Shown here one piece after another: positions 2,290-30,143 of a DNA stretch of 64,000 nucleotides. Made by a program: the position numbers and the translations under genes. The stretch spans positions 71,548,001 to 71,612,000 of the forward strand of contig OX597820.1 in NCBI GenBank assembly GCA_951406725.2, read 5' to 3'. This DNA comes from Octopus vulgaris. Taxonomy: Eukaryota. Position 1 is the stretch's first letter. Each line of letters opens with the position of its first letter. The notes beneath the pieces are model-generated. The model was not told where the DNA came from. It saw nothing but the letters and a program-made list of their open reading frames with translations, and searched no databases.

Positions 2290-3150
2290 ACACTCATTTT
2301 GTTTCTATAACAGAAACCTCTTCTTTCAGCTTCTTTTGTTCTTGTTTGGTATGCTCAGCATGTACCTTCTCTTCTAGTTGTCTAATATTGTTCCTGTTCT
2401 TTCATTTTCCATTTATTTCCCAGGGTCTCCTTTTTCTGTTCTACTTCACTACCATGTTACCTTCTGCTTGGCTAGAAATTGCCCCATACACAATTGGTTT
2501 GTGGCTCACAGCAGGATGTCTCACAGAAACTCCTAGCTGTTTATATGTTATAGTCCTCTGTTTTGTCTTTTTGATAAACATTTCACTTAATGCTTCTTTG
2601 AACCTAGAGCTAACAAAGGGATCTTTCAACTGCTATAGCTTTCTTCTCTATATTGTTTTGTGTTTCTGAGTAGCTCTTACTCTAATGTTGACTACTAGTC
2701 TATATTGAGTGGCATATTCTTCATTGGGAAAATACTTAGTATTCACTAAGATTTATCTATCCCTTTTTCTGGTGAGTTCATCATCATCATCATCATTTAG
2801 CGTCCGCTTTCCATGTTAGCATGGGTTGGATGGTTCAACTGGGGTCTGGGAAGCCAGAAGGCTGCACAAGGCCCAGTCTGATCTGGCAATGTTTCTACGG
2901 CTGGATGCCCTTCCTAACGCCAACTACTCCGTGAGTGTAGTGGGTGCTTTTTACGTGCCACCAGTACAGGTGCCAGACGGGGCTGGCAATAAAAATAGAG
3001 TCATAAAATCTATTTGGTTTTTCTGTTCAACTGAGTAGCAGGTGACCAAGTGTTTTCCAGTTTCTTGAAGCTAGTGTTACAAAAATTTTGGTCAAATATG
3101 TCAAAGAACTGAGAATCTTGGTCCTTCTTCATTATGTGTATCATGCAGTA
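2290..3150 (-). mobile_element. Old RTE LINE remnant (APE C-terminus and linker), interrupted at 2779-2988
   Basis: Minus-strand FCNTSFKK..LVT..QIDFM and KYFPNEEYATQYRLVV..QLKDP resemble ICNSNFKK..QIDYI and KTFPGEECTPQHRLVV..KLKDP at 27260-27515. Confidence 0.65.
2779..2988 (-). mobile_element. Young 5'-truncated RTE 3' end
   Basis: (CAT)n tail followed by ttccatgttagcatgggttgga...ggatgcccttcctaacgccaac, shared with the other RTE 3' ends in the window. Confidence 0.9.
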
Positions 3151-5616: not shown

Positions 5617-6766
5617 AAGTGCCACACCCTGGCAGTTGAGGGGACCTGTGGAAGAGGTAGACCCAGGAAAACCTGGGTCGAGGTGGTGAAGCACGACCTT
5701 CGAACTCTAGGTCTCACCAAGGAAATGACCAGAGACCGAGACCTATGGAAGTATGCTGTGCGTGAGAAAACCCGGCAAGACCAGTGAGAACAATCAAAAT
5801 CAAATCATATATCAGAAAGCAGGGGTTAAGTGACCCATCTGTTCGTGTCCGCTGTCAGCCTCGTCTGGCACCCGTGCCGGTGATACGTAAAAGCACCATT
5901 CGCTCATGGCCGTTTGCCAGCTCTGCCTGGCCCTGTGTCGGTGGCACGTAAAAGCACCATCCGTTCATGTTCGTTGCCAGCCTCGCCTGGCCCCGTGCCG
6001 GTGACACGTAAAAGCACCGTCCGTTCGTGGCCGTTGGCCAGCTCTGTCTGGCCCCGTGTCGGTGGCACGTAAAAGCACCATCCGTTCGTGGCCGTTTGCC
6101 AGCTCTGTCTGGCCCCGTGTCGGTGGCACGTAAAAGCACCATCCGTCCGTGTTCGTTGCCAGCCTCGGCTGGCCCCCGTGCCGGTGACACGTAAAAGCAC
6201 CGTCCGCTCGTGGCCGTTTGCCAGCTCTGTCTGGCAACCGTGTCGGTGGCACGTAAAAGCACCATCCGTTCGCGTCCGTTGCCAGCCTTGGCTGGCCCCC
6301 GTGCCGGTGACACGTAAAAGCACCATCCGTTCGTGGCCATTTGCCAGATCTGTCTGGCCCCGTGTTGGTGGCACGTAAAAGCACCATCCGTCCGTGTCTG
6401 TTGCCAGCCTCGGCTGGTCCCCCTGCCGGTGACACGTAAAAGCACCGTCCGTTCGTGGCCGGTTGCCAGCTCTGTCTGGCCCCGTGTTGGTGGCACGTAA
6501 AAGCACCATCCGTTCGTGTCCGTTGCCAGCATCGCCTGGCCCCGTGCCGGTGACACGTAAAAGCACCATCCGTTCGTGGCCATTCGCCAGCTCTGTCTGG
6601 CACCTGTGCAGGTGGCACGTAAAAACACCCACTACACTCGCGGAGTGGTTGGCGTTAGGAAGGGCATCCAGCCGTAGAAACACTGCCAGATCTGACTGGG
6701 CCTGAGGAAGCCTTCCAGCTTCACAGACCCCAGTTGACGCTAAACGATGATGATGATGATGATGAT
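5617..6766 (+). mobile_element. 5'-truncated RTE LINE: ORF C-terminus, repeat-containing 3' UTR, (GAT)n tail
   Basis: KCHTLAVEGTCGRGRPRKTWVEVVKHDLRTLGL..DRDLW (typical RTE C-terminus), conserved 3' end and GAT tail. Confidence 0.92.
5853..6630 (+). repeat. 13 x ~60-bp GC-rich tandem repeat in RTE 3' UTR
   Basis: Recurring core ggtgRcacgtaaaagcacc and gccag-N-ctggc; two variants mostly alternate. Confidence 0.95.
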
Positions 6767-10625: not shown

Positions 10626-11510
10626 ATCATCATCATCATCGTTTAATGTCTGCTTTCCATGCTAGCATTGGTTGGACGATTTGACTGGGGTCTGGCGAAC
10701 CAGATGGCTGCACCGGACTCCAATCTGATCTGGCAGAGTTTCTACAGCTGGATGCTCTTCCTAATGCCAACCACTCCGAGTTTGTAGTAGGTGCCTTTAT
10801 GTTCCACCGGCATAAGGACCAGCCAGGCAGTACTGGCAGTGGTCACACTCAGATGGTGCTTTTTATGTGCCACCTGCACAGGAGCCAGTCCAGCGGCACT
10901 GGCGACGACCTTGCTCAGATGTTTTTTCATGTGCCACCAGCACAAGTGCCACTAAGGTGACGCAGGTAACGATCATGCTCGAATGGTGCTTTTTACATGC
11001 CATTGGCACGGAGGCCAGCTTGTTGCTCTGGCAACGATCACGCTTGTATGGTACTCTTAGCGCTCCACTAGCATGGAAGCCAGTCATCGAATTTGATTTC
11101 GATTTCACTTGCCTCAACAGGTCTTCGCAAGCAGAGTTTAGTGTCCAATGAAGGAAAGGCATGCATAAGTGGGCTGGTTACACCCCTGGCATAGGCTATG
11201 AGGTTATGGTCTCACTTGAGCTTGCCAAGTCTTCTCAAGCACAGCATATTTCCAAAGGTCCCAGTCACTAGTCATTGCCTTGGTGAGGCCCAATGTTCGA
11301 AGGTCATGCTTCACCACCTCATCCCGGGTCTTCCTGGGTCTTCCTCTTCCACAGGTTCCCTCAACCGCTAGGGTGTGGCACTTTTTCACACATCTATCCT
11401 CATCCAGTCTCACCACATGGCCATACTAGTGCAGTCATCTCTCTTGCACACCACATCTGATGCTTCTTAGGTCCAACTTTTCTCTCAAGGTACTAACACT
11501 CTATCGAGTA
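10626..11510 (-). mobile_element. 5'-truncated RTE LINE (ORF C-terminus + 3' UTR with ~5 diverged hairpin modules)
   Basis: ORF 11204-11416 CVKKCHTLAVEGTCGRGRPRKT; (CAT)n tail at the left end. Confidence 0.92.
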
Positions 11511-11789
11511 CATATATATATATATATCATCATCATCATCATCATCATCATCATCGTTTAACGTCCGCTAGCACGGGTTGGACGGTTTGACCGGGTCTGG
11601 GAAGCCAGGGGCCGCACCAGGCTCCAGTCTGAATCTGGCAGAGTTTCTACGGCTGGATGCCCTTCCTAACGCCAACCACTCCGTGAGTGGATTGGGTGCT
11701 TTTTACGTGCCACCTGCACAGGGGCCGGAGGGTCCGGCATCGTCACGATCGGTTCGAGCATTTTAACGTGTCAGCGGCACGGGGGCAAC

Positions 11790-12130
11790 GAGGTCCGGGG
11801 TACTTTGGGGATCCAGGGTACTTTGGGGATCCGGGGTACTTAGAATGAGTACGTAGTAACAACGAATAGAAATATTAAGTCACTAGCTGGCTGTCTTTTC
11901 ACAGTGAAAGCATGAGGAGAAGGGGTAGTGGGGGGAGGAGGGAGTAGGCGTACCCGGTGTAGTGACGTATCCGGTGTAGATGGTGAGGACAGGGTATACT
12001 GGTATTGGTGGTGTGGGGTGAGGAACAGTGTTCACCAGTATTGGTGGTGTTGGCGGTGAGAACAGTGTTCACCGGTATTGGTGGTGGGGGTGAGAACAGT
12101 GTTCATCGGTATTGGTGGTGGGGGTGGGGG
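11790..12130. repeat. Short G-rich tandem repeats (~18 bp x3 at 11793-11841; ~33-39 bp x4 at 11982-12125)
   Basis: ggggatccggggtacttt units and ggtgagaacagtgttcaccggtattggtggtg units read directly. Confidence 0.8.
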
Positions 12131-12138
12131 GCGGGCGT

Positions 12139-15100
12139 GAAAGATGGAAAGAGAAGGGAAGAGATGGGATTACGGCTTGAGGTAGCCTAGCCTAAGGTTA
12201 AATTTTGTAGAGAGAGAGATAGAAAGATAAATCAAGTTATGGCGAAGGCTTGAAAGTAGCCTTAAAAGGTTAAATTTTCGTAACAATGTATGAATAAACG
12301 TAGTAACAACGAATAGAAATATTAAGATAAATTTTTAAAGAACTTGCTGCGGACATCGGTCGGGAGTTGAAATTGAAGAAGTAAGTTAGTTGAATTGGGA
12401 ATTTAAATTGTAGAATCGTAATGGTAAGAGGAGGAAAAAAGACCGCCAAATGGCTGAAAGATGGAAAGAGATGGGAAGAGATGGGATTACGGCTTGAGGT
12501 AGCCTAGCCTAAGGTTAAATTTTGTAGAGAGAGAGATAGAAAGATAAATCAAGTTATGGCGAAGGCTTGAAAGTAGCCTTAAAAGGTTAAATTTTCGTAA
12601 CAATGTATGAATAAACGTAGTAACAACGAATAGAAATATTAAGATAAATTTTTAAAGAACTTGCTGCGGACATCGGTCGGGAGTTGAAATTGAAGAAGTA
12701 AGTTAGTTGAATTGGGAATTTAAATTGTAGAATCGTAATGGTAAGAGGAGGAAAAAAGACCGCCAAATGGCTGAAAGATGGAAAGAGATGGGAAGAGATG
12801 GGATTACGGCTTGAGGTAGCCTAGCCTAAGGTTAAATTTTGTAGAGAGAGAGATAGAAAGATAAATCAAGTTATGGCGAAGGCTTGAAAGTAGCCTTAAA
12901 AGGTTAAATTTTCGTAACAATGTATGAATAAACGTAGTAACAACGAATAGAAATATTAAGATAAATTTTTAAAGAACTTGCTGCGGACATCGGTCGGGAG
13001 TTGAAATTGAAGAAGTAAGTTAGTTGAATTGGGAATTTAAATTGTAGAATCGTAATGGTAAGAGGAGGAAAAAGACCGCCAAATGGCTGAAAGATGGAAA
13101 GAGATGGGAAGAGATGGGATTACGGCTTGAGGTAGCCTAGCCTAAGGTTAAATTTTGTAGAGAGAGAGATAGAAAGATAAATCAAGTTATGGCGAAGGCT
13201 TGAAAGTAGCCTTAAAAGGTTAAATTTTCGTAACAATGTATGAATAAACGTAGTAACAACGAATAGAAATATTAAGATAAATTTTTAAAGAACTTGCTGC
13301 GGACATCGGTCGGGAGTTGAAATTGAAGAAGTAAGTTAGTTGAATTGGGAATTTAAATTGTAGAATCGTAATGGTAAGAGGAGGAAAAAGACCGCCAAAT
13401 GGCTGAAAGATGGAAAGAGATGGGAAGAGATGGGATTACGGCTTGAGGTAGCCTAGCCTAAGGTTAAATTTTGTAGAGAGAGAGATAGAAAGATAAATCA
13501 AGTTATGGCGAAGGCTTGAAAGTAGCCTTAAAAGGTTAAATTTTCGTAACAATGTATGAATAAACGTAGTAACAACGAATAGAAATATTAAGATAAATTT
13601 TTAAAGAACTTGCTGCGGACATCGGTCGGGAGTTGAAATTGAAGAAGTAAGTTAGTTGAATTGGGAATTTAAATTGTAGAATCGTAATGGTAAGAGGAGG
13701 AAAAAAGACCGCCAATGGCTGAAAGATGGAAAGAGAAGGGAAGAGATGGGATTACGGCTTGAGGTAGCCTAGCCTAAGGTTAAATTTTGTAGAGAGAGAG
13801 ATAGAAAGATAAATCAAGTTATGGCGAAGGCTTGAAAGTAGCCTTAAAAGGTTAAATTTTCGTAACAATGTATGAATAAACGTAGTAACAACGAATAGAA
13901 ATATTAAGATAAATTTTTAAAGAACTTGCTGCGGACATCGGTCGGGAGTTGAAATTGAAGAAGTAAGTTAGTTGAATTGGGAATTTAAATTGTAGAATCG
14001 TAATGGTAAGAGGAGGAAAAAAGACCGCCAAATGGCTGAAAGATGGAAAGAGATGGGAAGAGATGGGATTACGGCTTGAGGTAGCCTAGCCTAAGGTTAA
14101 ATTTTGTAGAGAGAGAGATAGAAAGATAAATCAAGTTATGGCGAAGGCTTGAAAGTAGCCTTAAAAGGTTAAATTTTCGTAACAATGTATGAATAAACGT
14201 AGTAACAACGAATAGAAATATTAAGATAAATTTTTAAAGAACTTGCTGCGGACATCGGTCGGGAGTTGAAATTGAAGAAGTAAGTTAGTTGAATTGGGAA
14301 TTTAAATTGTAGAATCGTAATGGTAAGAGGAGGAAAAAAGACCGCCAAATGGCTGAAAGATGGAAAGAGATGGGAAGAGATGGGATTACGGCTTGAGGTA
14401 GCCTAGCCTAAGGTTAAATTTTGTAGAGAGAGAGATAGAAAGATAAATCAAGTTATGGCGAAGGCTTGAAAGTAGCCTTAAAAGGTTAAATTTTCGTAAC
14501 AATGTATGAATAAACGTAGTAACAACGAATAGAAATATTAAGATAAATTTTTAAAGAACTTGCTGCGGACATCGGTCGGGAGTTGAAATTGAAGAAGTAA
14601 GTTAGTTGAATTGGGAATTTAAATTGTAGAATCGTAATGGTAAGAGGAGGAAAAAAGACCGCCAAATGGCTGAAAGATGGAAAGAGATGGGAAGAGATGG
14701 GATTACGGCTTGAGGTAGCCTAGCCTAAGGTTAAATTTTGTAGAGAGAGAGATAGAAAGATAAATCAAGTTATGGCGAAGGCTTGAAAGTAGCCTTAAAA
14801 GGTTAAATTTTCGTAACAATGTATGAATAAACGTAGTAACAACGAATAGAAATATTAAGATAAATTTTTAAAGAACTTGCTGCGGACATCGGTCGGGAGT
14901 TGAAATTGAAGAAGTAAGTTAGTTGAATTGGGAATTTAAATTGTAGAATCGTAATGGTAAGAGGAGGAAAAAAGACCGCCAAATGGCTGAAAGATGGAAA
15001 GAGATGGGAAGAGATGGGATTACGGCTTGAGGTAGCCTAGCCTAAGGTTAAATTTTGTAGAGAGAGAGATAGAAAGATAAATCAAGTTATGGCGAAGGCT

Positions 15101-18100
15101 TGAAAGTAGCCTTAAAAGGTTAAATTTTCGTAACAATGTATGAATAAACGTAGTAACAACGAATAGAAATATTAAGATAAATTTTTAAAGAACTTGCTGC
15201 GGACATCGGTCGGGAGTTGAAATTGAAGAAGTAAGTTAGTTGAATTGGGAATTTAAATTGTAGAATCGTAATGGTAAGAGGAGGAAAAAAGACCGCCAAA
15301 TGGCTGAAAGATGGAAAGAGATGGGAAGAGATGGGATTACGGCTTGAGGTAGCCTAGCCTAAGGTTAAATTTTGTAGAGAGAGAGATAGAAAGATAAATC
15401 AAGTTATGGCGAAGGCTTGAAAGTAGCCTTAAAAGGTTAAATTTTCGTAACAATGTATGAATAAACGTAGTAACAACGAATAGAAATATTAAGATAAATT
15501 TTTAAAGAACTTGCTGCGGACATCGGTCGGGAGTTGAAATTGAAGAAGTAAGTTAGTTGAATTGGGAATTTAAATTGTAGAATCGTAATGGTAAGAGGAG
15601 GAAAAAAGACCGCCAAATGGCTGAAAGATGGAAAGAGATGGGAAGAGATGGGATTACGGCTTGAGGTAGCCTAGCCTAAGGTTAAATTTTGTAGAGAGAG
15701 AGATAGAAAGATAAATCAAGTTATGGCGAAGGCTTGAAAGTAGCCTTAAAAGGTTAAATTTTCGTAACAATGTATGAATAAACGTAGTAACAACGAATAG
15801 AAATATTAAGATAAATTTTTAAAGAACTTGCTGCGGACATCGGTCGGGAGTTGAAATTGAAGAAGTAAGTTAGTTGAATTGGGAATTTAAATTGTAGAAT
15901 CGTAATGGTAAGAGGAGGAAAAAAGACCGCCAAATGGCTGAAAGATGGAAAGAGATGGGAAGAGATGGGATTACGGCTTGAGGTAGCCTAGCCTAAGGTT
16001 AAATTTTGTAGAGAGAGAGATAGAAAGATAAATCAAGTTATGGCGAAGGCTTGAAAGTAGCCTTAAAAGGTTAAATTTTCGTAACAATGTATGAATAAAC
16101 GTAGTAACAACGAATAGAAATATTAAGATAAATTTTTAAAGAACTTGCTGCGGACATCGGTCGGGAGTTGAAATTGAAGAAGTAAGTTAGTTGAATTGGG
16201 AATTTAAATTGTAGAATCGTAATGGTAAGAGGAGGAAAAAAGACCGCCAAATGGCTGAAAGATGGAAAGAGATGGGAAGAGATGGGATTACGGCTTGAGG
16301 TAGCCTAGCCTAAGGTTAAATTTTGTAGAGAGAGAGATAGAAAGATAAATCAAGTTATGGCGAAGGCTTGAAAGTAGCCTTAAAAGGTTAAATTTTCGTA
16401 ACAATGTATGAATAAACGTAGTAACAACGAATAGAAATATTAAGATAAATTTTTAAAGAACTTGCTGCGGACATCGGTCGGGAGTTGAAATTGAAGAAGT
16501 AAGTTAGTTGAATTGGGAATTTAAATTGTAGAATCGTAATGGTAAGAGGAGGAAAAAAGACCGCCAAATGGCTGAAAGATGGAAAGAGATGGGAAGAGAT
16601 GGGATTACGGCTTGAGGTAGCCTAGCCTAAGGTTAAATTTTGTAGAGAGAGAGATAGAAAGATAAATCAAGTTATGGCGAAGGCTTGAAAGTAGCCTTAA
16701 AAGGTTAAATTTTCGTAACAATGTATGAATAAACGTAGTAACAACGAATAGAAATATTAAGATAAATTTTTAAAGAACTTGCTGCGGACATCGGTCGGGA
16801 GTTGAAATTGAAGAAGTAAGTTAGTTGAATTGGGAATTTAAATTGTAGAATCGTAATGGTAAGAGGAGGAAAAAAGACCGCCAAATGGCTGAAAGATGGA
16901 AAGAGATGGGAAGAGATGGGATTACGGCTTGAGGTAGCCTAGCCTAAGGTTAAATTTTGTAGAGAGAGAGATAGAAAGATAAATCAAGTTATGGCGAAGG
17001 CTTGAAAGTAGCCTTAAAAGGTTAAATTTTCGTAACAATGTATGAATAAACGTAGTAACAACGAATAGAAATATTAAGATAAATTTTTAAAGAACTTGCT
17101 GCGGACATCGGTCGGGAGTTGAAATTGAAGAAGTAAGTTAGTTGAATTGGGAATTTAAATTGTAGAATCGTAATGGTAAGAGGAGGAAAAAAGACCGCCA
17201 AATGGCTGAAAGATGGAAAGAGATGGGAAGAGATGGGATTACGGCTTGAGGTAGCCTAGCCTAAGGTTAAATTTTGTAGAGAGAGAGATAGAAAGATAAA
17301 TCAAGTTATGGCGAAGGCTTGAAAGTAGCCTTAAAAGGTTAAATTTTCGTAACAATGTATGAATAAACGTAGTAACAACGAATAGAAATATTAAGATAAA
17401 TTTTTAAAGAACTTGCTGCGGACATCGGTCGGGAGTTGAAATTGAAGAAGTAAGTTAGTTGAATTGGGAATTTAAATTGTAGAATCGTAATGGTAAGAGG
17501 AGGAAAAAAGACCGCCAAATGGCTGAAAGATGGAAAGAGATGGGAAGAGATGGGATTACGGCTTGAGGTAGCCTAGCCTAAGGTTAAATTTTGTAGAGAG
17601 AGAGATAGAAAGATAAATCAAGTTATGGCGAAGGCTTGAAAGTAGCCTTAAAAGGTTAAATTTTCGTAACAATGTATGAATAAACGTAGTAACAACGAAT
17701 AGAAATATTAAGATAAATTTTTAAAGAACTTGCTGCGGACATCGGTCGGGAGTTGAAATTGAAGAAGTAAGTTAGTTGAATTGGGAATTTAAATTGTAGA
17801 ATCGTAATGGTAAGAGGAGGAAAAAAGACCGCCAAATGGCTGAAAGATGGAAAGAGATGGGAAGAGATGGGATTACGGCTTGAGGTAGCCTAGCCTAAGG
17901 TTAAATTTTGTAGAGAGAGAGATAGAAAGATAAATCAAGTTATGGCGAAGGCTTGAAAGTAGCCTTAAAAGGTTAAATTTTCGTAACAATGTATGAATAA
18001 ACGTAGTAACAACGAATAGAAATATTAAGATAAATTTTTAAAGAACTTGCTGCGGACATCGGTCGGGAGTTGAAATTGAAGAAGTAAGTTAGTTGAATTG

Positions 18101-18851
18101 GGAATTTAAATTGTAGAATCGTAATGGTAAGAGGAGGAAAAAAGACCGCCAAATGGCTGAAAGATGGAAAGAGATGGGAAGAGATGGGATTACGGCTTGA
18201 GGTAGCCTAGCCTAAGGTTAAATTTTGTAGAGAGAGAGATAGAAAGATAAATCAAGTTATGGCGAAGGCTTGAAAGTAGCCTTAAAAGGTTAAATTTTCG
18301 TAACAATGTATGAATAAACGTAGTAACAACGAATAGAAATATTAAGATAAATTTTTAAAGAACTTGCTGCGGACATCGGTCGGGAGTTGAAATTGAAGAA
18401 GTAAGTTAGTTGAATTGGGAATTTAAATTGTAGAATCGTAATGGTAAGAGGAGGAAAAAAGACCGCCAAATGGCTGAAAGATGGAAAGAGATGGGAAGAG
18501 ATGGGATTACGGCTTGAGGTAGCCTAGCCTAAGGTTAAATTTTGTAGAGAGAGAGATAGAAAGATAAATCAAGTTATGGCGAAGGCTTGAAAGTAGCCTT
18601 AAAAGGTTAAATTTTCGTAACAATGTATGAATAAACGTAGTAACAACGAATAGAAATATTAAGATAAATTTTTAAAGAACTTGCTGCGGACATCGGTCGG
18701 GAGTTGAAATTGAAGAAGTAAGTTAGTTGAATTGGGAATTTAAATTGTAGAATCGTAATGGTAAGAGGAGGAAAAAAGACCGCCAAATGGCTGAAAGATG
18801 GAAAGAGATGGGAAGAGATGGGATTACGGCTTGAGGTAGCCTAGCCTAAGG

Positions 18852-18854
<3 letters not shown>
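12139..18854. repeat. Tandem array, 317-bp unit, 21 full copies + ~62-bp partial, near-identical
   Basis: Unit starts at 12139, 12456, 12773, 13089, 13405, 13721, 14038, then every 317 bp to 18793. Confidence 0.98.
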
Positions 18855-18887
<33 letters not shown>

Positions 18888-18900
18888 GATATATGTATAT

Positions 18901-25970: not shown

Positions 25971-26736
25971 TTACAGTTATATAAAGTATATATATTTATA
26001 TAGTGCAATTTACACTCCAGATTACTTGACAAATAACCTGCATTAAAAACTCTATGTGAATTTTTGTTTGTATTGTAATTTTATTCCATGTTATTAAGTC
26101 CAGGTTTGATTGTTCCACAGAGTATAATTAGAAGAGAAACCAGAGCATGAGAGGTTCTTTGTAAGATATTTAATTACACCAGTTCGTTTTATTCACATAA
26201 GGTGATTGTTAGTTACATAAAGCAAAATTAAAAATTACATAATGTGCACTTGTTGCCAAATCATATGAGACATGTAATTATGAAATGCAATATCGGTAGA
26301 GAGAACATGTGATAGTAGCAGTAAACATTGAGGAGATGGCTTGCAGCTGTAGAGTATAGATAGTGGAGGTAAGCTATAAAAAAAGAACACATTTTACATA
26401 AAAAAGGGACATATTTTACATAGGACACACAATGCTCAAGCAAATATATATGAAAGGGAGTTATCAGTATGTCTACGAAATAAAGTGGGCATTAACTTCG
26501 GTGCAGTTTCATTGTTTCTTCCTAACTATTGTTTTTCTGTGATGTACATTAAGGTTTGACTGTCATAAAATTTAGTTCAACTGTGTGTTGTAGATATATC
26601 AATTCTAGCAGACATAAATGTACACATATAATAGATTTACACCTAGACAAGTATGTCCACGCAAAGTGACATATACATACATATATGCATATGTGTATTT
26701 GTATACACACATGTATATTCATACATACATATATAT

Positions 26737-29700
26737 ATTGACACATTGAAAGGCAGGTCTGGTGAGATAGTTGAGATGCTTGAATGGAGACATGTAGATT
26801 TGTGCTGCATCCAAGATGTAAGGTGGAAAGGAAGTTCTGCTAGATTCCTCACAGGCAAAGAACATAGGTATAAGATTTTCTGGGCAGGGAATACTGACAG
26901 GGTTAGGGGCATGGCTATACTTCTTGAGGAGAAATAAGTTGATAGGGTAATCGAGGTAGTCAGAGTCTATAATAGAATACTTAAGGTTAGATTAGTGCTG
27001 CAACATAGATTAGCAACCATTATCTCAATTTATGCCCCTGAGCCAGGGCTACCTGTTGAACAGAAAGACTGATTTTATGACACCCTCTTGCAGACTACCT
27101 CATCATCGAATGACAGGGACCTTCTCTTTGTGGCTGGTGACTTCAATAGGTATATTGGACAATATCCAGGGAGCTCCCATGGTGAACATAGTGGCTATGA
27201 ATTTGGTTCCTGAAATCAGGAGGGAACCAGGCTGTGGAGTTCTGTGATGCAAATGATCTTATGATCTGTAATAGTAACTTCAAGAAACCTGCTAGTTACC
27301 TGTTCACCTACCAGTCTGGTGGACACACATGTCAGATTGACTACATTCTTGCCAGGAAACAGGAAATATGGCTACTTATAAATGCCAAAACTTTCCCCGG
27401 TGAAGAATGCACTCCACAACACAGGTTAGTAGTTACTGACTTCAGTATTAGGGCTAAATAGCTGCCCAGAAGACGACCAGCATGGAAAAGAAGAGTCTGG
27501 AAGCTTAAGGATCCTGTGAATTGACAGAGATTTAGAGGCATATTACTTGAAGCTTCTGATAAAAAAGAGGAGGATATAGCATCACATAATGTGGAAGACA
27601 ATTAGAGGTTCATACGGGGTAACCTGTTGAGAGCTACTGACCAGATCTGTTGATGATGCAAAGTCCCCTCTCAGCCTAAAGTAATGTGGTGGTGGAACAA
27701 TGTAGTTGACAGGGTCATTAGGGAAAAGAAACAAGCATGGAAGGACTGGAAGAAAGGTGGTAGCAGGGAATTGTATCAGATAGCCAGAAGGGAAGCTAGG
27801 AGACAGTTTTACTTAGCTAGAGGGGAAGCAGATAAGATAAAATTTGCCAATGTTCTGCATTGCAAGGACCAAAGACTCGAAGTGTTTTGTGTTGCAAGAC
27901 AGTGTGTGAGAGAGAATCATGATGTCATAGGAGAAAAATGTGTCCCCATGATTGATGGCTCACTTGCATTTAATGAGGCTGCAAAGAGAGAGACTTGGAG
28001 ACACCACTATGAAAGGTTGCTAAATGAAGAGAATAAATAGGAGGAGAGTCTGCCAAATGTCGACCCAACATAGGGACCAGCTATTTGAATTGACAATACT
28101 TTGGTAGATAAAGCAATTAAGGGTATGAAGACAATGAAAGCCCCTGGCCCATCAAGAATCACTGTAGAGATGCTTAAAATATCTGGCACTGTAGGCTATA
28201 GTCTAGCCACCCATATAGTCAACCAGGTGATACATGAAGGAGTCATACCCAATGACTGGTGTAGCAGTACCATATTCAACTGCTACAAAGGTAAAGGTGA
28301 TACATTAGATACGAATAATTAGAGAGGTATCAAATTGTTGGATCAGGTAATGAAAGTCATGGAGAGGGTCATAGCCCAACTAATTATGGAGAGAGTTAGT
28401 TTAGATGAGATGCAGTTTAGGTTTATGCCAGGGAGAAGCAAAACTGATACTTATATTTCTGATAAAACAGCTACAGGAGAAATTCCTAGCCAAAGATAAA
28501 CCTCTATACTTGGCTTTCATTGACATAGAGAAGGCATTTGATAGGGTCCCCTGATCCCTTATCTGGTGGTCAATGTGGAAACTTGGGATAGATGAGTGAT
28601 TTAGTGAGAGCTGTACAAGCCATGTACAGGGATACTGTCAGTAAGGTGAAGGTTGGCAATGAGTATAGTGAAGAATTCTGGGTAGGTGTAGGTGTAGGGA
28701 GTCCAGCAAGTATCATCAATGAATAAGCCCCCTCTTATTCATCATAGTCCTCCAAGCAATAACAGAGGAATTCAAAACAGGATGCCTCTGGGAGCTCCTC
28801 TATGCTGATGACATTGCTCTAATAGCTGAATCACTCTCAGAACTAGTGGCGAAGTTTCGGGTGTGGAAGTAAGGTCTAAATTTAGCAAAAACCAAAGTCT
28901 TAATAAGTAGGAAGGCAGACAAATCACAAATCCCTTCAGGTAGATAGTCCTGCTTGATCTGTAGAAAAAGTATAGAAAAAGTATAGTTAGATCTACTCAG
29001 TGTAAGTTATGGACACATAAGAGGTGCAGCAATATCAAAGGAAGCTTAACTGGGAAGATAGTTTTAGTGTGTGACAAATGCACAATGGCAATAAACACTG
29101 AAAATGTGCAGAAAACAGCTTCCATCACATGCCAAGGGAAAAACTAGAAGTAGTTGAAAGCTTTCATTACTTAGGTAACCAAGTCAGTAGATGGGCTGGA
29201 TGCTCTGAGAGTGTGGCTGCTAGAATAAGATTAGCTAGGGCAAAGTTCAGAGAGCTCCTACTTCTACTGGCAACAAAGGGCCTCTCCCTCAAAATGAAAG
29301 GTAGACTGTCTGACACATATGTGTGAACAGTCATGCTACATGGCAGTGAAACATGGATTGTGACTGCTGAGGACATGTGCAGGCTTGAAAGAAATGAAGC
29401 TAGAAAAGTTGGACATAAGAAGCATCAGATGTGGCATGCAAGAAAGGCAACTGCACTGGTATTGTCATGTGTTACGCATGGATGAGGACAGCTGTGTGAA
29501 GAAGTGTCACACCATAACAGTGGAGGGAACCGGTGGAAGAAGTAGACCTAGGAAGACCTGGGATGAGGTGGTGAAGCAGGACCTTTGAATGTTGGGCCTC
29601 ACTGGGGCAATGATGAGTGACTGAGACCTTTGGAGATATGCTGTGCTTGAGAAGACCCAGCAAGCCAAGTGAGATCATAACTGTGGCCTATGCAAGTGTC

Positions 29701-30143
29701 GCCTAACCTGCACATTTAATAGTACCCTTCAATTGCGAGGCAATATGCTGTGCTTGAGAAGATCTGCTGAGTCAAGTGAAATTGTTGTCATGGCCAATGG
29801 CAGTACTGCCTGACTGGCACCCCTGCTGGTGGCACATAAAAAGCACCATTTGAGAGTGGTCAATGTCAGTGCTGCTGGACTGGCTCCCATGCCGGTGACA
29901 CATAAAATGCACCATTTGAGTATGGTTGATGTCAGTGTTGCCTGACTGGTCTCTGTGCTGGTGGCACATAAAAGGCCCTCAATACACACTTGGAGTGGTG
30001 GGTGTCAGGAAGGGCATCCAGCTGTAGAAACCTCACTAGATCAGATTGGAACCTGTGGCAGCCTCCTGGCTTGCTAGTCCTCAGTCAAACCGTCCAACCC
30101 ATGCCAGCATGGAAAGTGGATGTTAAATGATGATGATGATGAT
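26737..30143 (+). mobile_element. Near full-length degenerate RTE LINE (APE endonuclease, RT, PHD-like finger, 3' UTR, (GAT)n tail)
   Basis: TLKGRSGEIVEMLE..DLCCIQDVRW, AGDFN, QIDYIL, QHRLVV (APE); KAPGPS, RGIKLL, EKAFDRV, LLYADD at 28795-28812; VESFHYLG; RPRKTWDEVV. Multiple stops and frameshifts. Confidence 0.95.

Follow-up and report, generated by a model that had tools for sequence, protein, structure and literature searches.

The question raised by this stretch of the Octopus vulgaris genome (assembly GCA_951406725.2, contig OX597820.1, positions 71,548,001 to 71,612,000; 64,000 nucleotides, hereafter the window) is how a 7.3-kb insert at positions 11528-18854 came to combine the tail of an RTE-type long interspersed nuclear element (LINE) with a long array of 317-bp monomers. 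A preliminary description, made from the sequence alone, had reported about 21 near-identical monomers in an RTE-tailed insert flanked by (TA)n. This structure was recovered in full: Tandem Repeats Finder (TRF) gave a period of 317, a copy number of 21.2 and 99% matches at 12138-18854, and other RTE 3' ends present in the window align with the tail of this copy. The best explanation as a whole, which we regard as probable from the sequence comparisons, is that the insert is a young non-autonomous bipartite LINE, derived by internal deletion from an autonomous octopus element (RTE-B) and retaining its 3' tail, 5' untranslated region (UTR) and 5' array.

Among 40 loci sharing the junction between the non-repeated head of the insert and its array, 14 lead into an RTE open reading frame (ORF), 25 into a short tail and one into a gap. 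The autonomous element, RTE-B, was fetched at 16 loci, 11 of which have uninterrupted frames of 1,073-1,130 aa. Its proteins show RVT_1, endonuclease and PHD domain matches together with a C-terminal motif that we take to be the one labelled RTE, and its ORFs differ by 0-10 of ~3,150 bases. The best 120 homologues are 54-63% identical, share the same architecture and carry no clade names, and the PDB relatives are only L1 and R2. With a single ORF encoding an apurinic/apyrimidinic (AP) endonuclease and a reverse transcriptase (RT), no ORF1 and a microsatellite tail, RTE-B agrees with the RTE-clade criteria given in bioRxiv 10.1101/2022.11.04.512097.

Compared with RTE-B, the family lacks 3,145 bp (3,133-3,146 against 14 copies), a stretch that starts right behind the ATG and stops close to where the ORF ends; this founding deletion was filled by 49 nt copied from the RTE-B 5' UTR. 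The family tail is identical to 15 RTE-B copies at 248-250 of 251 positions, and the identity of the 5' UTR is about 98%. RTE-B also bears 5' arrays of the same monomer clade, with units of ~339-391 bp and a monomer ~93% identical to the 317-mer (21/300 differences); in intact copies these monomers lie upstream of the ATG. Taken together, the deletion, the tail and 5' UTR identity and the related units on RTE-B indicate a bipartite non-autonomous RTE, whose array corresponds to the 5' end of RTE-B and not to a multiplied 3' UTR. Of the two origins offered in the preliminary description, a non-autonomous RTE-mobilised element with 5' monomer arrays is therefore the one retained, while a truncated RTE with a multimerised 3' UTR is contradicted by the monomers upstream of the ATG. 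The deletion junction was found at 178 places in the genome and the intact RTE-B ATG junction at 109, each against a control of 0. Amplification followed the deletion, and the copies bear marks of target-primed reverse transcription.

Two other origins were considered and set aside. RTE-A, a second autonomous family, has a tail only 81% identical and an unrelated monomer. A coding body was also rejected: the three head/monomer frames gave no Pfam match, the body consists of 5' UTR and ORF end, and the search for a small-RNA head gave no tRNA and no Rfam match at the gathering score. The lack of coding capacity noted earlier thus holds, although the body is not anonymous, as 11771-11851 is a remnant of the RTE-B ORF end.

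Other rearranged forms of RTE-B were observed. At one locus (L239, C1:127.049-127.051 Mb), RTE-B has been deleted independently a second time; the units of this derivative measure 360 bp, and its deletion junction contains a short, telomere-repeat-like (CCCTAA)n run. At C19:2.582-2.588 Mb (L215/L236), an intact RTE-B has a rearranged array leading into an inverted second 5' UTR and tail in head-to-head arrangement.

The window copy and its immediate surroundings are laid out as follows.

11512-11527, no strand: (TA)n target on the tail side, read from the sequence.
11528-11554, minus strand: (GAT)9 microsatellite tail, the 3' end of the element; TRF gives (ATC)10 at 11526-11555, and RTE-B copies have the same tail.
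11555-11770, minus strand: RTE-B 3' UTR with a private 9-bp deletion after 11565, from the family tail and the window alignment.
11771-11851, minus strand: remnant of the last RTE-B ORF codons, with 18-bp repeats that read STPDPQ, by comparison with RTE-B.
11851-11882, minus strand: private junction at which 391 bp of the family head are replaced by the monomer 29-mer (11851-11879) and 3 nt.
11883-12137, minus strand: tether, a remnant of the RTE-B 5' UTR in which 11982-12126 is occupied by a 34-39-bp repeat, by comparison with RTE-B.
12114-12137, minus strand: GC-rich boundary motif CGCCCGCCCCCCACCCCCACCAC; the preceding CGGTG is deleted in the window copy.
12138-18854, minus strand: 5' array of 21.2 units of 317 bp, 5'-truncated within a unit, from TRF and unit comparison.
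13708-13740, minus strand: unit 6 of the window array, showing both of the differences that characterise the family's unit 1.
18855-18900, no strand: (TA)n at the truncated 5' end; TRF places (TA)n at 18853-18900.
10626-11509, minus strand: neighbour outside the element, an older 5'-truncated RTE copy in the same TA tract, 84% identical to RTE-A.

Among the 21 full units of the array, 16 are identical, two carry a single substitution and three are short of one A. The two unit-1 differences in unit 6 could record a backward jump across five units, or may be noise in the consensus. The preliminary description had taken the 29-mer at 11851-11879 as the link between array and body. It does match every unit of the window exactly (E 4e-9), but it lies in the 391-bp deletion, whose junction has a single match in the genome; since that deletion is private to the window copy, the 29-mer is not the body-array link of the family. 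Furthermore, the window copy is without 13 bp at the head/array boundary, CGGTG included, and has several further small private deletions, while seven of its private k-mers occur in none of the other loci compared. The unit count and the private small deletions are given as they stand in the assembly, and the latter may be either real or consensus errors. The window copy is probably a dead end.

Across the window, more than 10 RTE tails were observed, along with a decayed, near full-length RTE at 26735-30143 on the plus strand (81% to RTE-A) and, at 5835-6629, 13 copies of a 61-bp RTE 3' UTR repeat that form the expanded tail of another RTE copy.

The insert is not a one-off. In the genome searched (G000; 2.8 Gb, 227 contigs), all 37 loci picked by monomer (17) or by body (20) have the same 963-bp head of tail and body, 97-100% identical and in the same orientation, and 36 of them have an array of 0.5 to more than 24 units behind it, which answers the call of the preliminary description for other loci with tail, body and monomers. 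All 20 tail-picked loci run on into the same body, and 12 of these stop before the array. The head/array junction has 131 genome matches (control 0), and across the 40 junction loci the median array length is 792 bp, with six arrays exceeding 10 units, three of those six being lower bounds; arrays reach at least 37 units. A monomer 27-mer has 1,177 exact genome matches, and within the 100 of these that were listed, every one of the 12 clusters adjoins an RTE-B-type head. The earlier suggestion of a retroposon that seeds satellite arrays is upheld in this descriptive sense. Summed contig depth, which is not a copy number, was far higher for the monomer than for the body in three DNA runs (two from organism A, X1 and X2, and one from organism B, X17), and a joint leading 317 nt back is present in the X1 DNA run. 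As a class, the arrays are no invention of the assembly.

Two further arrays were noted. At C2:127.45-127.49 Mb (L055, L109, L130, L148, L149), a single head is followed by ~125 units (40 kb); the stretch includes a 100-N gap, and its distal part mixes unit types. At C25:1-4853 (L040), an array of 317-bp units extends to the very first base of a chromosome-scale contig, which may be an assembly break or a chromosome-end array.

Insertion marks were examined at 58 loci. (TA)n was present at the tail in 33 and on both sides in 26, and eight loci had duplications of 15-61 bp that contain C/G and enclose tail and array together (best in L059, 61 bp). One copy (L039) shows a 5' inversion with 1.2 inverted units, and all of its units carry the same private extra T. 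The 5' ends are spread over the unit: with 69 ends (seven mis-called ends dropped, two re-entered by hand, censored ends excluded), the best 30-nt window held 14 (p=0.22). A rougher test with 74 uncurated ends gave p=0.011-0.027, and this corresponds to a broad excess only, at phases 160-220 and 290-316. In the end-phase test, as in the array-wide-private and unit-gradient tests below, non-autonomous loci are mixed with some RTE-B loci.

The same design was observed beyond RTE-B. RTE-A, with a protein of 1,059 aa and ~75% protein identity to RTE-B, carries arrays of 600-617-bp units, with at least 22 units in three copies. The boundary motif, CGGTG followed by CRCCCGCCMYCCCACCCCCACC, has 215 exact genome matches (control 0). 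Of 30 matches fetched, 19 had arrays, which fall into three monomer clades without mutual similarity (z<=5 between clades, >=18 within), and the preceding unit ends in CGGT in 16 of these 19 arrays. The third clade, with units of 344-545 bp, stands on further non-autonomous heads related to the RTE-B 5' UTR, and its autonomous partner was not found. Unrelated monomer types stand in front of one fixed CGGTG/GC-rich boundary in two autonomous RTEs and in non-autonomous lines.

The non-autonomous lines with 344-545-bp units comprise L155, L158, L166, L174 and relatives; in some of them the tether contains an 18-bp CCACCACCAATACCACCC repeat that has expanded. RTE ORF matches also recur at a spacing of ~7.8-7.9 kb at C13:65.42-65.45 Mb (five), C29:9.51 Mb (two) and C9:116.61 Mb (two), suggesting large RTE-containing tandem units. 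At L098:4376-6063, LINE fragments, presumably of the restriction-endonuclease type, lie between RTE copies.

The arrays are homogeneous within loci and differ between them. Within-array variation is 0.067% when pooled, noisy units included, and 20 array-wide types were distinguished among 34 loci. Array-wide changes occur between identical or near-identical heads, as in L040, L216 and, for RTE-A, L112 versus L123. The heads of L040 and of L037/L048 are identical, yet 14 of 15 units in L040 carry 62C>T, and its unit 1 differs from units 2-15. Private substitutions fall from 0.087% in the head to 0.032% in unit 1 and 0.010% in units 3 and beyond. Monomer position 65 (12189 in the window, and equivalents) is a hot spot, with all four bases as array-wide states across subfamilies, and no RNA-editing bias among array-wide variants was seen by inspection. 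The head tree gives too little signal for a comparison with monomer type: support was obtained for 2 of its 31 branches, and 23 changes were counted versus 27.8 when shuffled. In an RTE-B array at C1:134.55 Mb, where 36 units were compared, shared variants recur in ordered blocks (units 3-5/13-15/19-21 and 8,9,12/25,26,29), with 10 observed against 1.4 expected and 0 of 20,000 shuffles. The aperiodic mosaics in L034, a127, distal L055x and L084x fit consensus noise and are set aside as biology.

How such arrays would be copied and maintained can be proposed in outline. By analogy with rodent L1 monomers, the units are likely to act as promoters; transcription would then start upstream within the array and yield a long array-containing RNA. 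The tail identity and the intact parent copies suggest that the RTE-B protein copies the deleted family in trans. Within a (TA)n tract, target-primed reverse transcription would begin at the (GAT)n tail and stop at a random point; each daughter would then receive a random piece of the array. The loss by truncation may be made good by duplication of multi-unit blocks through out-of-register pairing of units. For regrowth, we give a slight and tentative preference to events in arrays already resident in the DNA (slippage or unequal exchange); re-priming of the RT out of register is itself a serious contender, and both probably occur. Fast turnover from few units would account for the whole-array type switches between near-identical heads and for the unrelated monomers swapped at a fixed boundary.

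Several observations weigh against this account. The RTE assignment follows architecture criteria instead of a tree of named references. The GC-rich motif, in a boundary region with what we take to be GC-box, CACCC and CCAAT-like words, occurs once in the tether and in none of the units; no transcription start was found, and the 69 5' ends form no pile-up of the mouse-L1 kind. No run on record as RNA contained the element, and X13, whose RNA label is a guess, has a DNA-like depth pattern. Because no start was found, the motif is confined to the tether and the recorded RNA runs are without the element, promoter function is put forward by analogy only. The longest arrays, at C2:127.45-127.49 Mb (~125 units) and C1:134.55 Mb, have N gaps. 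In addition, the gradient from unit 1 to distal units is borderline (p=0.056), strictly locus-private array-wide substitutions are rare (2/65 loci), and the block test is significant in one of four arrays (L081 p=0.27, a127 p=0.40, L034 p=0.51). Consensus polishing or G-run errors could inflate all of the homogeneity contrasts.

The most substantial alternative keeps the same element and differs in when the array is made: the RT would write most of each array at insertion through repeated jumps that leave the RNA 5' end and land in an earlier unit, frequently next to CGGTG, with DNA exchange playing a minor part. We consider this unlikely overall, although several observations speak for it. 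The boundary is fixed in three unrelated monomer clades; the unit-1 signature recurs inside arrays (window unit 6, L045, L195); array lengths are roughly memoryless, with six of 40 arrays above 10 units against 6.9 expected; arrays of 20-40 units sit on copies with a median of 0 private head substitutions; and the templated inserts at the founding deletion (49 nt) and at the private deletion of the window (29 nt) point to a hopping enzyme. Mutation-rich ordered blocks in an older copy are instead simplest as DNA events after insertion, private array-wide variants are few (though two to three is about the singleton-rate prediction), and the mosaic patterns may be consensus noise. In its general form, equally doubtful in our judgement, these RTE reverse transcriptases would rebuild the front end at every insertion by re-entering an earlier unit, with the conserved CGGTG/GC-rich boundary as the preferred landing site, and any captured upstream sequence would become a multi-kb homogeneous array. 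If true, this RTE group would be a programmed satellite-making machine with swappable units, common to autonomous and parasitic lines and far better suited than mouse L1 for settling array regrowth.

A circular RNA template, also raised in the preliminary description, would make each array a rolling-circle copy of one 317-nt circle joined to a linear head, as for retrozymes. The near-perfect homogeneity of young arrays, the scattered ends and the difference between unit 1 and units 2-15 in L040 would suit such a circle, but the monomer has no hammerhead core (CUGANGA) on either strand, no credible hepatitis delta virus (HDV) fold and no Rfam match at the gathering score; a simple HDV descriptor gave a single poor antisense match, in the tail only. 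The sense monomer also folds weakly (-20 kcal/mol as a circle), arrays mix unit types, and they lie upstream of the ATG on full-length autonomous elements. Since no ribozyme was found and the older array has ordered block duplications, a single RNA circle is disfavoured and appears improbable. Still less probable, and largely refuted, is an independent satellite or assembly artefact with RTE pieces attached. It could draw on the very long arrays with N gaps and mosaic units nearby, and on reads that cannot be placed across the window array. Against it stand the common head and orientation at 37 of 37 loci, the 12 of 12 head-linked clusters, duplications that flank tail and array as one unit, the excess of monomer depth in three DNA runs, and locus-specific unit types, which a global consensus could not produce.

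The closest structural relatives are the bipartite RTE LINEs (RTESINE1/2, WALLSI3, MAR4_MD, Bov-A; RIME, NARTc; PMC5786205), in which an autonomous RTE-type LINE has likewise been reduced by internal deletion to its two end parts, 5' and 3', and which have a microsatellite tail, no ORF and no small-RNA head. The octopus family differs in that its 5' part includes an array of up to tens of units, so that inserts reach many kb; the word 'tandem' is absent from the main text of PMC5786205. Recently active RTE families are known from an octopus genome (PMC9115989, PMC13282606). The element of PMC9115989 has a 3' UTR that is mostly microsatellite, unlike RTE-A or RTE-B, and 'monomer' does not occur in the main texts of either paper, whose supplements and repeat libraries lie outside this check and may include these sequences. 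Animal non-LTR (long terminal repeat) retrozymes (PMC7229834) are also dispersed tandem arrays with non-coding units of 170-400 nt; here, in contrast, there is no hammerhead and no Penelope link, an RTE tail and parent are present, and the array is one-sided behind a fixed head.

A comparable pair of autonomous and non-autonomous elements exists in Dictyostelium, where TRE5-A has tandem A-modules. Like the octopus pair, TRE5-A.1 and TRE5-A.2 (PMC3159450) combine the loss of a large piece of ORF with a promoter module at the 5' end, putative in the octopus elements, and trans-mobilisation has been shown for TRE5-A; TRE5-A.2, however, keeps ORF1 and targets tRNA genes (PMC3159450). In the literature searched, no account of 5' tandem arrays on RTE elements or of this family was found, with Repbase, supplements and most subscription papers outside the coverage. 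Separately, bipartite RTE derivatives and rodent L1 monomer arrays have both been described; that literature gave no example of the two combined, of arrays this long or of unrelated units sharing a single fixed boundary. The family illustrates how satellite-like arrays are spread by a LINE, ~1,200 units of the 317-bp clade alone, which repeat annotation would file as separate tandem repeats.

The array itself most resembles the mouse and rat L1 promoters (PMC6454616, bioRxiv 10.1101/2022.08.06.500894, PMC5381506), with a variable number of tandem units upstream of a tether and ORF, a distinct first, tether-side unit, and unrelated monomers that replace one another. Unequal crossing-over and RT switching are both candidates for block growth in rodent L1 (same sources). 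The octopus elements differ in being of the single-ORF RTE type, in their AT-rich units (36% GC) and in bearing the array on non-autonomous lines as well, and their promoter activity is proposed by analogy. Of mouse L1 promoters, 99% contain 10 monomers or fewer; 5' ends in mouse gather at the start site, and each daughter is shorter by 0.6-1.8 units (PMC6454616, bioRxiv 10.1101/2022.08.06.500894), whereas 6 of 40 arrays exceed 10 units here, several exceed 20, and the 5' ends form no significant cluster. For mouse L1, the way in which LINE 5' monomer arrays are restored in the face of truncation is described as an open question (PMC6454616; 10.1101/2022.08.06.500894). The octopus system makes this question directly testable, since it offers two autonomous families, several deleted lines, hundreds of very young copies, longer arrays and three unrelated units at one boundary, together with an easily tagged, short non-coding version (~1 kb and the array).

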